Positions 37,624-54,259 are shown, numbered from the stretch's first letter. The stretch: 64,000 nt of DNA from an uncultured virus (IMG/VR IMGVR_UViG_3300011768_000001) (IMGVR_UViG_3300011768_000001:1-64000), one strand, 5' to 3'. Notes: generated from the sequence alone by a model not told the origin. A program made the numbers and translations.

Positions 37624-38934
37624 TTATTGATTATTAGGCATATTTGTGATAGCTGTGCCCATCTCTTCTCTAAACCACCTTCCAAACACTTCATTCAACT
37701 CGCCAGCTTGCTGCTCTGTAGTCCCAGCAGGCATTTGAAAAGTTGCTTCAAAGTTGAAAGTGTTACTCGTGTTGTTGTTACTATTACTTGTCACTGTGTT
37801 GGCAGCTTGTGTGAGCAGTTGATCACGTGTTGCAGCAGAAGGTTTACCTGAAACAGCCGGGTCTTCTGGAGTGGGTGGCGTATAGAGCAGGTTATCTCGT
37901 ACAAACTGCTGAGAAATTGCACCTTTATTTACACCATTCTCATAGCGGCCTGCAAGGAGTGGGTCAAGAGTTACAGAATAATTAGGGTTATCAAAGGCTT
38001 TGTTAATTTGATTACCGGTGATAGTTTCACCAGCTTCCGTTACAGTACCCCTTTCAGCCATCCAAGTATCAGAGTTAGTTCCTGAAGAGAGCCTTGCAAG
38101 CCAATCTGACGCCAATGTCCTGTACCTCTTCACCACGCCGTTGGGGTCAGATTTATCTGGGGCAAGCCATCCAGAAATACCTCCAGCAGCAGCCCTTCCT
38201 GGTGCAGTAACAGAATCTAAAGCCCCACCAGCGGCATTTGTTACAGCTTCACCAGCACCCTGCCAGTCACCATTACCAGCCTTAAGAACTGCTTGTAACC
38301 CTTGGTTGAGGCTAGCAAGCGGCCTACCGAAGAACTGCAGCCCTTGGTTTTCACTCATTAACTCAAAAAGCTGTTTCCAACCACCATAAGATAGCTCACC
38401 AAGATCTTTAATATTCTTGAAGACATCTCGAATCTCAAACATGTTAGCTAAGGTTTCTTCGCCTTGCTTACCCTGCCCCCAAAGCCAATCAGAGATAACA
38501 CTATCTTTACCTGCCATCAGTCGTTGAAAGTCTTGGGGAATTAGTAAGAGATAAGATGCATACTTAGTTGCATTATTAAAAGATTGGGCTAAGCTTTCAA
38601 CCATCCCAGATGACTCATCAATTCCCTCTGAGAGAGTTTTGAATATTCTGGCAAAAGCTTCTTCTACCCCAGCAGCTGAGGCGATTATAGCCATGTCGTT
38701 TACTGAGTTAGAAAGCCTTTCTTCCTGTGCTTGCGAAGAATTTGAAGCTTTCTCAACACCCGAAGCTGCGGTCTCAGAGGCAATATCTCCAGCAAAGGTT
38801 AGAATATCACCCCTAACATTCCCTTTCTTCATTGCAGCAAGAAGTGTTTTAATAGCCTCAGAGCCAGTTTGTGTGCCACCTGTTTGTCGCTGATATGCAC
38901 GGGCAAATAAGGATACTGCACCGGGGAGAGATTC
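37624..38934 (-). CDS. Tape measure protein, exon 3 (436 aa)
   Basis: Begins GAA TCT CTC CCC GGT (ESLPG) directly after the intron omega-G at 38935. Confidence 0.85.
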   Translation of the reverse strand, partial: ESLPGAVSLFARAYQRQTGGTQTGSEAIKTLLAAMKKGNVRGDILTFAGDIASETAASGVEKASNSSQAQEERLSNSVNDMAIIASAAGVEEAFARIFKTLSEGIDESSGMVESLAQSFNNATKYASYLLLIPQDFQRLMAGKDSVISDWLWGQGKQGEETLANMFEIRDVFKNIKDLGELSYGGWKQLFELMSENQGLQFFGRPLASLNQGLQAVLKAGNGDWQGAGEAVTNAAGGALDSVTAPGRAAAGGISGWLAPDKSDPNGVVKRYRTLASDWLARLSSGTNSDTWMAERGTVTEAGETITGNQINKAFDNPNYSVTLDPLLAGRYENGVNKGAISQQFVRDNLLYTPPTPEDPAVSGKPSAATRDQLLTQAANTVTSNSNNNTSNTFNFEATFQMPAGTTEQQAGELNEVFGRWFREEMGTAITNMPNNQ

Positions 38935-39940
38935 CAATTATGTTCAAGAGAAAACGCTACTCTTCCCTCAGCGACATTACTCGCATCTATATGTCACCAT
39001 ATAGTTCTGACTATATCATAATCTCCAAAAGAGATTCCTACCATTTCCACTGTCAATCGCTTACAGTGTACTCTACTCGCTTCCACTCTAAAGGTGTGCT
39101 TTCGATAGTCGATGAACCTTTCTTTACCAATTATAAAGCGACGTAATGTGGTTAAAACCTTTTCGACGTTTTAAGTCATAAACAAGATCAACAGAAATTT
39201 CGAGTTCATTCGCGATTGGTGTTGGTTTAAATCCAAGCTCAATCATCTTACATGCTTCGTGAACTTTATCTTCTGATTGCTTTTCTGTTTTAGGTTTGAT
39301 ATCAATCACTGGTAAATCTTCAGTGATGTGAGTCCACTTTTTACGCCTTTTAATATTTCCAATGGTTGTTTGCTCAACTCCGTAAAGTTTTGCTAAAACT
39401 ATGGCATTTTCTCCGGCTAACAAACTCAAATAAATTACTTTAACTTGGTCTTCAGTCAGAATTGCTCTTCCATTGTCTACCCCAACCGTGCTGGCTAAAA
39501 GATTGTTAGCAACCGCATGGTCAACATTTTCTTGTCTTGTTACCCATTCAAGATTAGAAACAACGCAATTAAGTTTATTTCCGTCTTTGTGGTTTACAAA
39601 GGGTTTGTTTTCAGGATTATCAATAAAGGTAATAGCTAACAGCCTGTGAGTGTGGATATGCTTTCGCTCCCCATTCACCCATAGCTTAACTGCCCAATAT
39701 TTTCTTTGTACTGACTGAGAAAGCTCTTTTATGGAGCCACGTTTAGATGAGAAAACTTTACCATCTTCAGTTACAAAGTAATCCTCAAAACCTTCAATAT
39801 TAATTTGCTTCATTTACCACCCCCAATAAGTTGAAGGCGTATGTTAAAGACTTGGCTGCTGATTGTCAAGAAATATTCTTGGGTTCCCAGCAATTAAATA
39901 GGTTATTCAATGCAACTCACGCTGCAAGGGGCCAAATTCT
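38935..39940 (-). mobile_element. Group I intron TMP-I2 (1006 nt) carrying an HNH ORF in the P6 region
   Basis: P AAUUGCUGGGAA, Q AAUCAGCAGCC, R GUUCAUCGACUA, S AUGAUAUAGUC; P1 GGCU/GGCC with U-G; terminal G. Confidence 0.9.
39124..39813 (-). CDS. Intron-encoded HNH homing endonuclease
   Basis: HRLLA..F..NPENKP.VNHKDGNKLN..VSNLEW; two C-terminal HTH-like repeats; lies between intron Q and R elements. Confidence 0.9.
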   Translation of the reverse strand: MKQINIEGFEDYFVTEDGKVFSSKRGSIKELSQSVQRKYWAVKLWVNGERKHIHTHRLLAITFIDNPENKPFVNHKDGNKLNCVVSNLEWVTRQENVDHAVANNLLASTVGVDNGRAILTEDQVKVIYLSLLAGENAIVLAKLYGVEQTTIGNIKRRKKWTHITEDLPVIDIKPKTEKQSEDKVHEACKMIELGFKPTPIANELEISVDLVYDLKRRKGFNHITSLYNW

Positions 39941-39956
39941 AGCCAATTGTCCTGTA
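39941..39956 (-). CDS. Tape measure protein, exon 2 (16-nt micro-exon)
   Basis: T ACA GGA CAA TTG GCT; joins exon 1 GAG CT and exon 3 GAA to give MSEELTGQLAESLPGA. Confidence 0.85.
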
Positions 39957-40215
39957 CCTAATCTTCAGAAGGTTTCGTTAAGTCCTTCCCGCATAAAACG
40001 ATGCTGCTGCATATTGCTATGCAGATGAGACTATCTCTTATACTTCACCTTTACGTGGTCAGTACCCCACCACTTCCACTCACTTGAGTGTACGCCTCTC
40101 GGCTAGTCGTTACACGTTCCCTTCCGGGCTTCGCTCGGTATTGTCCACTTGGGAGTTTCACCGACTTCGATGGGTTTATTCTTCAACGTATTTCTACGAA
40201 GCGAGCCTACATTCA
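39957..40215 (-). ncRNA. Group I intron TMP-I1 (259 nt, no ORF)
   Basis: P1 GAGCU/GGCUC with U-G; P10 UGUA/UACA; P AAGUCGGUGAA, Q AAUACCGAGC, R GUGUAACGACUA, S AAGAGAUAGUC; terminal G 39957. Confidence 0.9.
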
Positions 40216-41123
40216 AGCTCTTCTGACATCAGTTTGTCCTTTCCCGCCACTTGACTAAGTGCACGAAAGATACGATTTTGAGAAGCTTTGTCTACATGGT
40301 TAACACGAGCAAGTTCAGAGAATCCTTTAAAAATCCCCTTACCCTGATCTACAGACATACCCGCACCAGTTACGCCGGAAAGCAGCTTGTTGAAGTCTGG
40401 TGCTGCATCAAGGTATGAAAAACCCACCCTGTTTGCCTGTGCTCTTAACCAATCATAAGACTGAACACCTTGCTGCCTTGACCCACCCGCTTGTTCTACA
40501 ACTGCTTGTGTAGTAAGCTGTGAGGCCACAATTTGCTGATTACGCTCATTAAGCTGTGATAGTCCATACCCACCTAACCCTAATGCTAACGCAGGAGCAT
40601 ACAGCCTTGCAGCACTCCCTGCGACGCCCCCACCAGCCATTGCATCGCGTCTTGATAGCCGACTTGAAGTAGACCTTACGTTAGCAGATTCTCGCCTCAT
40701 ACGGGCTTCCTCCTGCATTACAATACGGCGTCTATTCCACTCGTTTGTAGTTTCTCTTTGTCTTCGGTCCCACTCTTTAGAGCTGAGTTGACCGCCAACA
40801 AGACTTGTACCAAGGCTACCTTTACGACCTACCGATCTACTTGCCCTAAGCAGTGCAGCTTGCAGGGAGCGTTCATTTACAGCGAATCTTGATACATCAA
40901 ACACAAGTGTTTTGGATGCACTATCTAAAGCATTACCAAGCACCTGTTTAAGTTTTGTTTCGTTAACGGAGAACTTAGTGATCCCAACATTCAGGTTATC
41001 AAATTTCTTACGGTACTTCGTAAACTTTGTTTCTAATGCTTGTAGGTATAAGTCAACTTTCCTCAATTGGGAATTATTGACCGATACGCCGACTTCCGCG
41101 AAGTATCTTGCAATGCCTGTCAT
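40216..41123 (-). CDS. Tape measure protein, exon 1 (spliced product about 744 aa)
   Basis: Tape-measure N-domain motif RALSQV.GK.KLMSEEL; follows the tail chaperones. Confidence 0.85.
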
Positions 41124-51311: not shown

Positions 51312-51549
51312 CATAATCTTAAATAAGATTCGTTATATCTTACCCAGCCGGGAAAGGCTGCTATATATCACTATATAGAGGAGACTATATCTTCAAACAA
51401 TTTTGTTTGCCCACCGCTTCGGGTCACTTGACCCTACTCCATTTCTGGATAGTCGTTACACGTTCTAGATTTCTCTAGCTTCGCTCGGTATTGTCTCTTA
51501 AGAGAGGTCCACCGAATTCAATGGGTTTATAGACGACCAAGGTTAGTAA
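51312..51549 (-). ncRNA. Group I intron TerL-I2 (238 nt, no ORF)
   Basis: P1 GACGAU/GUCGUC with U-G; P10 AACCU/AGGUU; P AAUUCGGUGGA, Q AAUACCGAGC, R GUGUAACGACUA, S AAGAUAUAGUC; terminal G 51312. Confidence 0.92.
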
Positions 51550-52767
51550 ATCGTCTTTATTTTTTCGACTTCCGTCAAACTGCTCTAATTCGTCGAAATA
51601 AATATCATTCCAAGCATCTTCTACGTAGTCAATAAGACCTGCCTCAGCTGCTGCTGCAAAAGGTTGGAATCGAACTACTTTAGACTTGTTAGTTGGACGC
51701 ATACGGGCATAAAATCCTTCTTCAAGGAGCTCTTTGATCATCATCTGACCCGCTGCTTTTCCGGCTTGGCCTGGCTCCTGCGGCAGTAGAATCTGAGTAC
51801 CTTCAGGATCTGACTTGGCGGTTTCAATGATACGTTGCATGACCTCACCAAACCTAGCTTTAAACCTAACCACATCTACAACAATATATCTTCCAGATTT
51901 TGTCTTCGCTATCAAAACACCAGCTGTTGCATCAGGATTTGGCATTGCCTCTGATGGTAAACTACCAGCGATATCCCACGCACGACAGTAAGAAATAATA
52001 TTCTGTTCGTGTAGTTTTACAGGAGTACAGAATTCTTTCTTAAAGAAGCCGCTTGTAGATTCTTTAGCATACCATGAACCGAGGTAAAGACGCTCCATCT
52101 CCACGCGCGGCATGTTCATAAGTTTGTGGGCGTAGGATGGGTCACGGCGAAGTAAAACTGGATTATCATGACAGTTTGCAGGTAGGAAAACGAATGACAT
52201 AGGACCACAGTTTTCACCATAGGTCGCAAGCAACTCTTCTTTTGATTCATTCCAAACCATCTGGTTGTCTATACGGATGAACCACATACGTTTACCGTCA
52301 CGGTCTTTACGAGGAAGGCCACGCTCATCCAAGTACCCTGCATCTTCTAGCCACTTACGAAGGTAGCTGTTGTAATCAGGGTTGGCTGTCATCATCATCA
52401 CAGGCTTCATTGGTGCTGCTGTACGCATCCTTGAGATGAAGTAAAGCACTTGACTTTCTTCAAATTGCTGAGCTTCGTCCACCAGAAATGCACTTACTTG
52501 CCAGCCTTGGAAGTTATGTTTATCTTTCTCTTGCTCACACCCCTTACAAACAATAGTGGCTTTATTAGGAAAAATAAATTTACTATCCTTGACTTTAAAT
52601 TGAGCGCCGAACTTTTGATAAATTTCTTGTCCAGTTTCTGCTGGACCGCCTGGGCCAGTCACCTGAACCATTGTTCTTCGTAGGATAACCCCGCGAAACT
52701 TTTCCATGACAGGATCTTGCGCCCATTGCAGAAAAGCCATGACACCTAAATAACTTTTACCACTACC
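51550..52767 (-). CDS. terL: Terminase large subunit, exon 2
   Basis: GSGKS, Walker B FLVDEA, TANP, RAWDIA; spliced product 476 aa. Confidence 0.95.
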
Positions 52768-53001
52768 CAAATACTTATGAAGTTCGTTAGACTTCCTTTC
52801 ATTACTGAAAGAATCGGACTATATCTTCAACCTTTCGGTTGCCCCCCGTTTCGATTGCACTTGCAACCTACTCTACTAAGTTCCGTATAAATACGTCTTT
52901 TCGATAGTCTCTGAACGTTACTTATTTCTAAGTCTTCGCTGCTGATTGTCTCTTTTGAGAGTTCCAGCAATTAGAGGGGTTTAACGCGACCCATAGTGTT
53001 A
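52768..53001 (-). ncRNA. Group I intron TerL-I1 (234 nt, no ORF)
   Basis: P1 GCGGCU/GGUCGC with U-G; P10 CACUAU/GUAGUG; P AAUUGCUGGAA, Q AAUCAGCAGC, R GUUCAGAGACUA, S AAGAUAUAGUCC; terminal G 52768. Confidence 0.92.
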
Positions 53002-53100
53002 AGCCGCGCCTCCGAAGAGGACTATATCATTTTCTGAAACCGCCTTAAGGAAGGCGGCTTGCTTGGGCGAGGCTGGAGCAATAATATTATCTTCAGACAT
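53002..53100 (-). CDS. terL: Terminase large subunit, exon 1
   Basis: MSEDNIIAPASPKQAAFLKAVSENDIVLFGGAA (Q-motif plus first half of Walker A). Confidence 0.9.
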
Positions 53101-53848
53101 ATCTGCCGTTTACCTTATCTAATGCACGAGCATTAACTGCACCTGCTGACTTATTTTCATACTCAGTCACAAACATGCAAAGCTCTCGTGAGTACACTTT
53201 GTTATCTGAAACTTTTAAATCTTTATCAAGATTGTATTTAAGTCCTGTCTCACTGGCATTAAGCCACATTTCAAAGTTTTCAAGTTTTGAAATATCTGTG
53301 AGAAAGTTTGCAAAACAGTGCCAACGGGCATCAACAAAGCAACGACCAAAATATCCCATATAATCTTTCGGGTTGTAGCAACGCTTCATCATATTAGACC
53401 AGAGCTGTTTAGCTTGTTTCCAATAAGGAAGGTGTTCATACTCACCTATATACCCAATATCTAGGAATGTTTTACTATAAGGATCTGAAATCTTACCTTT
53501 ACGTACATTATGAATTTCAACAGTAGTTGTATATCCAGTTTCGTTAAACTGAACAATACATTTGTTGGCTTTCTTGCTGATGATTTTACCGCTGAACCCA
53601 GCATTATTGGTAAAGTCTTCATCCCAGGGTTGCCAATCATGTGTGTTTACTCGGGGTAAACTAAAATCCCTTACCTTTCCAGCAAGCACATTACCCGCTT
53701 CGGCAATTGTTTCGTACCCGGTGTTAACAAACCTAACACGCAGCTTCTTACTTTCCTCAGCCCGTCCCAGCACCTCAAGTGTACCATAGCCATTTGACTC
53801 ATAGAACTGATCATAAGTTTTTCGATAACTTCCAACTTTGTTAGCCAT
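53093..53848 (-). CDS. Free-standing HNH-like homing endonuclease overlapping the terL start
   Basis: Two N-terminal repeats (V.F..TGY......NV..GK..D), WSNMMKRCY, W..F.NF, LDKD, NKVYS...C.FV...N. Confidence 0.8.
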   Translation of the reverse strand: MANKVGSYRKTYDQFYESNGYGTLEVLGRAEESKKLRVRFVNTGYETIAEAGNVLAGKVRDFSLPRVNTHDWQPWDEDFTNNAGFSGKIISKKANKCIVQFNETGYTTTVEIHNVRKGKISDPYSKTFLDIGYIGEYEHLPYWKQAKQLWSNMMKRCYNPKDYMGYFGRCFVDARWHCFANFLTDISKLENFEMWLNASETGLKYNLDKDLKVSDNKVYSRELCMFVTEYENKSAGAVNARALDKVNGRYV

Positions 53849-53887: not shown

Positions 53888-54259
53888 TTACTTCACATCA
53901 TCTTTAACTTGAGGATCATCGCCACCAAAGGCAGCTTTCAGATACTGACTTGTCATAACACTGCGGTCACGTCCACCAATCCCGTGCTTCTTCTTTACTA
54001 CGGCTTTGAACTCGGACCACTCCATAGCATCAAGCTGTTCTTTAGTAAAGTTTTCTTGCATGATCTGAAACTGAAATCCAGGTTTATTTTCCATCAAGTC
54101 TTTTGTCTTGAGATACATCCAAGCTGAGTGAGGAAACCTCAGACCTGGAACTTTATCTTCTTCAAGAACAGCGCCTTTATTAGCTAGCTCTACGACGTTC
54201 TTGATGAAGCTATATCCGATGGAGTCATTACCTGTAACTAGAACTTTATATTCATTCAT
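53888..54259 (-). CDS. Hypothetical protein
   Basis: GGAGAG SD; own promoter upstream. Confidence 0.75.
   Translation of the reverse strand: MNEYKVLVTGNDSIGYSFIKNVVELANKGAVLEEDKVPGLRFPHSAWMYLKTKDLMENKPGFQFQIMQENFTKEQLDAMEWSEFKAVVKKKHGIGGRDRSVMTSQYLKAAFGGDDPQVKDDVK

Follow-up and report, generated by a model that had tools for sequence, protein, structure and literature searches.

How does a tailed phage encode a continuous tape measure protein (TMP) when the parts of its gene lie in two separate open reading frames (ORFs)? The question is raised by positions 38,935 to 40,215 of a 64,000-nt stretch of DNA (the whole of this stretch is called the window below) from the uncultured virus IMGVR_UViG_3300011768_000001 of IMG/VR, an 88-kb tailed phage whose TMP gene lies on the minus strand. 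Gene callers report two 'hypothetical' ORFs here, of 309 and 437 aa, which fall into separate database clusters, as the initial annotation of this DNA had anticipated. We conclude with high confidence that both ORFs belong to one TMP gene, that this gene carries two different IA-type group I introns with homing sites 16 nt apart, and that its splicing would give a frame of 744 aa. The conclusion is drawn at the level of sequence, from the anatomy of the gene, the covarying cores of the two ribozymes, the intron-less and single-intron alleles of relatives, and the restoration of a protein motif to the exact residue.

Gene layout and reading frame

Direct reading of the minus strand places the 3′ end of exon 1 at GAG CT (40216) and the 5′ start of exon 3 at GAA TCT CTC (38934), with a micro-exon between the two introns (Table 1). 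The terminal base is a G in both introns, and the splice coordinates first proposed are exact. Joined together, the three exons measure 2235 nt, a multiple of 3, and form a 744-aa frame without internal stop. When the 16 nt of the micro-exon are omitted the frame is shifted and a stop is reached 34 codons past the junction, so that the predicted effect of exon skipping on the frame is borne out. In-frame stops also sit 7 and 8 codons inside the introns. The two ORFs reported by gene callers can be read in the same way. The last seven codons of the first ORF (41123..40194, 309 codons) are a foreign-looking read-through of intron 1, followed by TAG. The second ORF (38937..37624) is exon 3 called as a separate 437-aa protein from a TTG start at 38937.

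Table 1. Coordinates of the TMP gene, its introns and their elements in the window.
Feature	Coordinates	Strand	Remarks
TMP exon 1	41123-40216	minus	302 codons + CT, first two bases of a Leu codon
Intron 1, group I, ORF-less, 259 nt	40215-39957	minus	site B, GAGCT/T (slash: cut)
Intron 1 internal guide	40203-40211	minus	UGUA 40211-40208 (P10), GGCUC 40207-40203 (P1); direct reading
Micro-exon TACAGGACAATTGGCT, 16 nt	39956-39941	minus	third base of the Leu codon + T-G-Q-L-A codons
Intron 2, group I, 1006 nt	38935-39940	minus	site C, GGCT/G; ORF in P6 loop
Intron 2 internal guide	39930-39937	minus	AUUU 39937-39934 (P10), GGCC 39933-39930 (P1); direct reading
HNH homing endonuclease gene, 229 aa	39124-39813	minus	in P6 loop of intron 2; purine-rich GGGGGTGG stretch upstream
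TMP exon 3	38934-37624	minus	436 codons + stop

The junction in homologous tape measure proteins

Exon 1 alone gives a match just under the cut-off to the Pfam family TMP_3 (PF20155; E 2.7e-10) over profile positions 13-110 of 192, and PF20155 is carried by the uninterrupted homologs. Both exons match tape measure families of PHROG, and exon 3 shares two of these families (5255 and 28779) with exon 1. In PHROG 5255 the match of exon 1 runs to profile position 425 and that of exon 3 begins at 432; in PHROG 28779 exon 1 reaches 322, and exon 3 is projected to begin at 329. The six profile positions left uncovered between the exons in both families correspond exactly to the split Leu codon and the T-G-Q-L-A supplied by the micro-exon.

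Uninterrupted proteins give the same picture. In Pseudomonas phages vB_PseuGesM_254 and vB_PsaM_M1 the TMP is uninterrupted and aligns without gap across the junction. Among the homologs of exon 3, 56 of 70 are uninterrupted proteins of 600-760 aa that carry the junction motif, many with identical junction residues. Seven exon-3 ORFs begin where intron 2 ends. The comparison with intron-less homologs, which had been put forward as a check, thus finds the TGQLA segment retained, and the joined exons are open and restore at the junction the motif of uninterrupted homologs, as claimed. The restored motif is the most conserved TMP motif.

Two group I ribozymes around the micro-exon

Intron 1 scores 62 bits with the Rfam group I model RF00028, whose gathering score is 50 (40225-40007, E 2.6e-13), over the whole model (positions 1-253 of 253), and is one of three group I introns found in the window at Rfam gathering thresholds. 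Beyond P9, where the model stops, a further 50 nt reach to 39957 and fold into two more hairpins, which were found in all relatives. P1 of intron 1 is formed by GAGCU of the exon (40220-40216) and GGCUC (40207-40203), with a U.G pair at the splice site; this P1 is also present in the Rfam alignment. Its P10 has 4 bp, between UACA (39956-39953) and UGUA (40211-40208). In relatives with an intron at site B only (L013, L043, L063, L074 and L078, described below), the P10 guide pairs with 0-2 bases as judged by eye. The 4-base P10 of the window intron is possibly an adaptation to the micro-exon context, or possibly due to chance.

Intron 2 was found in a permissive Rfam scan that covered 38700-40400. 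Its 3′ half scores 30.5 bits with RF00028 (39240-38987, E 1.9e-5) and its P4-P6 half 16.9 bits (39892-39807, E 0.22); the intron appears as two sub-threshold halves because it is split by a 690-nt ORF. P1 is formed by GGCU (39944-39941) and GGCC (39933-39930), again with U.G at the splice site, and P10 by GAAU (38934-38931) and AUUU (39937-39934), one G.U pair included. The guides of intron 2 and of the site-B introns occupy the same alignment columns. Direct reading recovers the double use of the micro-exon described in the initial annotation, the first four bases in P10 of intron 1 and the last four in P1 of intron 2. The group I membership of intron 2 rests on homology and covariation with introns that pass the Rfam threshold. 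The proposal of two back-to-back group I introns is thereby upheld, for intron 1 by the Rfam threshold and for intron 2 by covariation.

Covariation was examined by aligning ten introns over their 3′ halves, namely the two of the window, the two of the metagenome contig L088 (see below) and six from IMG/VR relatives. RNAalifold returned P7, P7.1, P7.2, P8, P9 and a distal hairpin (P9.2), with 31 pairs of which 20 show compensatory changes. Counted on this structure, which comes from the alignment that it is tested on, 94.2% of cells in these 3′ halves are paired, compared to 75.7% in shuffles (0 of 500 as high). The 5′ halves of eleven introns gave P4/P5 with 10 pairs, 5 of them compensatory, while P1, P2, P3 and P6 of intron 2 were judged by eye and from the Rfam alignments. 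P7.1 and P7.2 are two hairpins located between P7 and the 3′ strand of P3. They are present in both introns, as are extra hairpins after P9, and we take both introns to be IA2-like. The two introns are 45.3% identical to each other over their 5′ halves and 50.6% over their 3′ halves, and their P1 and P10 guides differ. Between the window and L088, compensatory changes fall in P7.1, P7.2 and P9.1 of intron 1 and in P8 of intron 2.

A megablast search of cultured phages found no close DNA relative of the window, its only match being 123 nt of the intron 2 core in Bacillus phage vB_BpuM-BpSp (255 kb). The 3′ core of intron 2 (39000-39122, minus) is 81% identical over these 123 nt to five places in that genome, which suggests that vB_BpuM-BpSp holds several introns of the same ribozyme family.

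Insertion sites in relatives

An alignment query retrieved 74 IMG/VR loci, with both exon flanks matched in 71 of them; single exon proteins used as queries gave no relatives among viral contigs. Exactly 18 nt separate the matched flanks at 62 of the 71 loci, L026 and L060 project to 15 nt, and the other seven carry insertions. Outside these 71, an insertion is present in L019, L010 is continuous, and L080 gives no information. All eight insertions lie at one of two sites. Five are located at site B, the site of intron 1 (L013, L043, L063, L074 and L078), and in all five the 3′ exon starts with TACAGG or AACAGG. The site-B introns of L013, L043 and L063 are about 1100 nt long and contain a 240-aa HNH ORF; those of L074 and L078 are about 735 nt long and contain a different, Cys-rich ORF in their 3′ part. 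The remaining three insertions (L018, L076 and L019) are located at site A (ATGTCT/), 8 nt upstream of site B. The DNA of the S-E-E-L-T-G-Q-L-A-E motif (24 nt) holds sites A, B and C, spaced 8 nt and 16 nt. At L078 the longest ATG ORF has just 31 aa, and its Cys-rich ORF may be decaying.

No intron was found at site C, the site of intron 2, among the IMG/VR loci, and DNA patterns for site-C introns gave 0 matches in viral contigs, then 7, all of them in unrelated sequence. Protein homologs of exon-1 length (n=87) were also compared. Site-B read-through tails end 49 of them, the window's own protein included, and site-A tails end 11. A further 21 read through T-G-Q-L/I-A into an intron-2-type tail, one of these tails being identical to that of the window; three others read through, and three are without the motif. 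In all, 81 of the 87 end in intron read-through tails. Taken together, the site-B loci, the site-C tails and the starts of the exon-3 ORFs mean that each of the four splice sites is seen singly in other phages. The initial annotation had called introns in a tape measure gene unusual, and this does not hold. They affect 81 of the 87 exon-1 homologs, and group I introns at three TMP sites have been published for B. cereus-group prophages (PMC2504315).

The ORF within intron 2 matches Pfam HNH_3 (E 1.4e-8, 34.7 bits against a cut-off of 24.8), gives a weak NUMOD4 match and matches PHROG 59 (E 8e-53). Its sole sequence match in the PDB is 1U3E, an 'HNH homing endonuclease' (E 1.6e-13, residues 5-106), which we take to be I-HmuI of Bacillus phage SPO1. 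With these matches the HNH ORF noted at the outset is substantiated. It shares 89% identity with the ORF of L088, 36% with the site-A ORF and about 31% with the site-B ORFs. To judge from these identities, the three neighbouring sites hold three diverged lineages of one endonuclease family.

Double-intron and empty alleles

A pattern of the double arrangement gave three matches in metagenome contigs, of which L088 is real whereas L089 and L090 are chance matches in unrelated DNA. The L088 contig (1478 nt) contains the 3′ 216 nt of intron 1, an identical micro-exon, a 1011-nt intron 2 with a 229-aa HNH ORF, and exon 3. Identity to the window is 184/216 in intron 1, 864/1012 in intron 2 and 181/235 in exon 3; the introns are thus 85% identical between L088 and the window, compared to 77% for exon 3. 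Contigs of four public sequencing runs were also compared with the locus. Another relative, about 88-90% identical, is represented in run X1 by a 142-nt contig that extends across the 3′ end of intron 1, the micro-exon and the 5′ start of intron 2, and by a 2753-nt contig with exon 3 and the 3′ end of intron 2.

The empty arrangement was found in run X2, where a 276-nt contig joins 38934 to 40215 with 15 letters between them (plus a shared T) and one synonymous change in the micro-exon. The relative concerned is about 94% identical, with 3/113 and 12/148 differences in the flanks. Run X3, guessed to be RNA, gave a single 196-nt contig that lies inside exon 1 and is uninformative on splicing.

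Alternative readings

Several points weigh against two spliced introns. The TMP_3 score of exon 1 is 40.7 bits against a cut-off of 41, just below it because the match is cut at the intron. As a single match, intron 2 stays under the Rfam gathering score (30.5 bits against 50), and its P1 and both P10 helices have only 4 bp each and, taken alone, could be due to chance. The fall to 33-47% of paired cells when partners were slid is inflated, since the consensus structure that was tested came from the same alignment. None of the listed runs that hold the locus is on record as RNA. The label 'DNA?' of run X2 is a guess, and its contig represents either an intron-less allele or spliced RNA of the relative; DNA or RNA alike, it confirms the predicted outer junctions and the 16 nt.

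In one rival reading, one or both introns no longer splice, the TMP having been inactivated by selfish insertions in a defective phage or in an assembly of dead DNA. Splicing is deduced here from the sequence, intron 1 has lost any ORF, and intron 2 is under the gathering score as a single match. However, compensatory changes keep the helices paired, both between the window and L088 and across the ten introns, and the introns are better conserved than the flanking exon (85% against 77%). Moreover, no fewer than two other divergent sequences show the arrangement, completeness of the record is rated at 100%, and exon 3 is open for 436 codons in the frame predicted from splicing. We consider inactivation of the gene very unlikely. 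Another possibility is that the whole region is removed as one unit, either as a composite intron or by routine exon skipping, leaving the 16 nt outside the functional mRNA. Skipping has indeed been documented for Orf142 of phage Twort (23-nt exon) and for the Coxiella 23S rRNA (34-nt exon) (PMC10136302). In the TMP gene, however, it would be lethal to the frame, with a stop after 34 codons; homologs need exactly six residues at the junction, and the 16 nt are kept in the intron-less allele. Skipping of the Twort type goes with two highly similar introns and a hybrid ribozyme. In this gene it is less expected than in Twort because the introns share just 45-51% identity (45.3% and 50.6% over the two halves) and their guides differ; differentiated splice-site recognition elements favour exon inclusion (PMC10136302). 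Removal as one unit is highly improbable.

The inner boundaries might instead be shifted by one base around the shared T (40215/39956), to give a 15-nt or a 17-nt exon, as intron 1 and the micro-exon both begin with T. Because of this T, the empty-site contig, with its joint at 40215 and 15 letters, cannot fix the cut to the base. Only the cuts of Table 1 provide both introns with a U before the 5′ cut (U.G in P1) and with a terminal G, and we give the shifted boundaries almost no credence. The shifted choice would yield an identical mRNA, and therefore the protein does not depend on it.

Other candidate explanations were also considered. An intein and a programmed frameshift found no support. 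A single 1281-nt intron was rejected, because the frame would stay shifted and the six residues that homologs require would be missing.

Proposed splicing and spread of the introns

We infer that both introns flanking the 16-nt micro-exon self-splice in vivo. Intron 1 would be transcribed and folded first, with its GGCUC paired to the end of exon 1, and would join exon 1 to the micro-exon with the aid of the 4-bp P10. It probably also splices first, because it is first in the transcript and just 259 nt long. For the second step, GGCC of intron 2 would pair with GGCU at the 3′ end of the micro-exon, which would then be joined to exon 3. The 744-aa TMP frame would be regained only if both introns splice accurately, and tail assembly would depend on both steps, as first proposed. 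Ribosomes would be kept off the ribozyme cores by the stops that lie in frame 7 and 8 codons inside the introns. The I-HmuI-like HNH endonuclease of intron 2, if active as its domain predicts, presumably drives homing into intron-less alleles. We propose that intron 1 is co-converted with intron 2 because it lies 16 nt away and is ORF-less.

A broader interpretation is offered with considerable reserve. The double allele, with introns at sites B and C, might be a selected state and not an accident, on a three-site battleground of related IA introns that contain HNH ORFs of three lineages (31-36% identical) or no ORF, with co-conversion, shielding and a lengthened P10 at work. As parts of this same tentative interpretation, ORF-less intron 1 might spread by co-conversion with the endonuclease of intron 2, and it might protect the genome against site-B endonucleases of co-infecting relatives. 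Its 4-bp P10, compared to 0-2 bp as judged by eye in the five relatives with site B only, could enforce inclusion of the micro-exon, and among internal exons flanked by group I introns in phage protein genes the 16 nt would be the shortest reported.

Consequences for annotation, RNA biology and mobile-element ecology

For annotation, the consequence is an essential tail gene split by gene callers into two ORFs (309 and 437 aa) labelled 'hypothetical'. The same cause underlies at least 81 other fragments of exon 1 in public data, and many TMP annotations of this phage group would be repaired if the three insertion sites were recognised. To RNA biology, the locus offers a natural pre-mRNA in which a 16-nt exon has to pair with one ribozyme in P10 and with the following ribozyme in P1. 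Work on whether tandem group I introns include or skip an exon has so far used Twort and engineered Tetrahymena constructs (PMC10136302), and the natural single-intron, double-intron and empty alleles constitute a ready comparison set for this question. For the ecology of mobile elements, three adjacent homing sites with diverged endonucleases represent a test bed for intron competition and co-conversion.

Other features of the window

The gene for the terminase large subunit is also split by two group I introns, at 51361-51610 (-) and 52795-53063 (-), with Rfam scores of 76.5 and 92.6 bits. The upstream intron interrupts the Walker A coding sequence, with GGCGCGGCT at the end of exon 1 and GGTAGTGGTAAAAGT at the start of exon 2, which encode G-S-G-K-S, and the middle exon carries Terminase_6N and Terminase_6C. 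Two TMP and two terminase introns give the phage at least four group I introns, all of them in late genes for structure or packaging. Published phage introns likewise interrupt terminase and other structural genes (PMC4299906, PMC8541194, PMC3706429). Immediately upstream of the terminase start are two ORFs, 53093-53848 (-) of 251 aa and 53888-54259 (-) of 123 aa, for which Pfam gave no match. The 251-aa ORF ends 4 nt into the region of the terminase start codon.

At 38111-38127 (-), inside exon 3 of the TMP gene and in a different reading frame, lies a sequence (GGTACAGGACA-TTGGC) that nearly repeats the micro-exon together with its left flank. The corresponding pattern matched only itself and 38111-38127, and two matches arose in 0 of 100 shuffles. 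The score by gapped local alignment was 38, compared to a shuffle mean of 15.8, but blastn-short within the window gave only E 0.11. The near-copy, whose surrounding segment is replaced in the closest relative, is possibly due to chance.

Comparison with known systems

Relative to the phage IA-type introns of Rfam RF00028, intron 1 of the window matches the full model and intron 2 only as two halves. The HNH ORF resembles I-HmuI (1U3E) in its HNH_3 domain and in its location inside a phage group I intron. It differs in that the similarity, known here from sequence, covers the N-terminal catalytic half only.

Group I introns of classes IA1 and IA2 (TMP-IVS1/2/3) occupy three sites in the TMP genes of B. 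cereus-group prophages (Tourasse and Kolsto 2008, PMC2504315). As in the present locus, some prophages carry two introns, related introns fit different sites by changes in P1, and the targets are conserved. In contrast to the window, that TMP family is a different one (>1200 aa), the introns reside in siphovirus prophages of Gram-positive hosts, and the insertion sites are unrelated; in the part of the paper that describes them, no micro-exon between introns appears (PMC2504315).

Closer in architecture is Orf142 of phage Twort, where three group I introns are present and a 23-nt exon separates introns 2 and 3 (PMC10136302). Both systems have several IA-type group I introns in one phage protein gene and a very short exon that serves both ribozymes. 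The Twort introns are highly similar, whereas those of the window are 45-51% identical, and the window further differs by its 16-nt exon (not 23), its tape measure host gene and the HNH gene in one intron. As a precedent, invoked in the initial annotation, Twort therefore stands for the multi-intron gene with a short exon; its exon skipping is less to be expected here, where high similarity between the introns is lacking. A 34-nt exon lies between group I introns in the Coxiella 23S rRNA (PMC10136302), and still smaller exons have been reported in mitochondria (PMC12308204). Our literature search returned no report of a phage TMP gene with a micro-exon (16 nt) flanked by group I introns, which is not proof of absence. 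Compared with these systems, group I introns in TMP genes are of an already known kind and are common in this phage group; what is modestly new is the very short, frame-critical internal exon, together with a three-site insertion hot spot and its abundant natural allelic variation.

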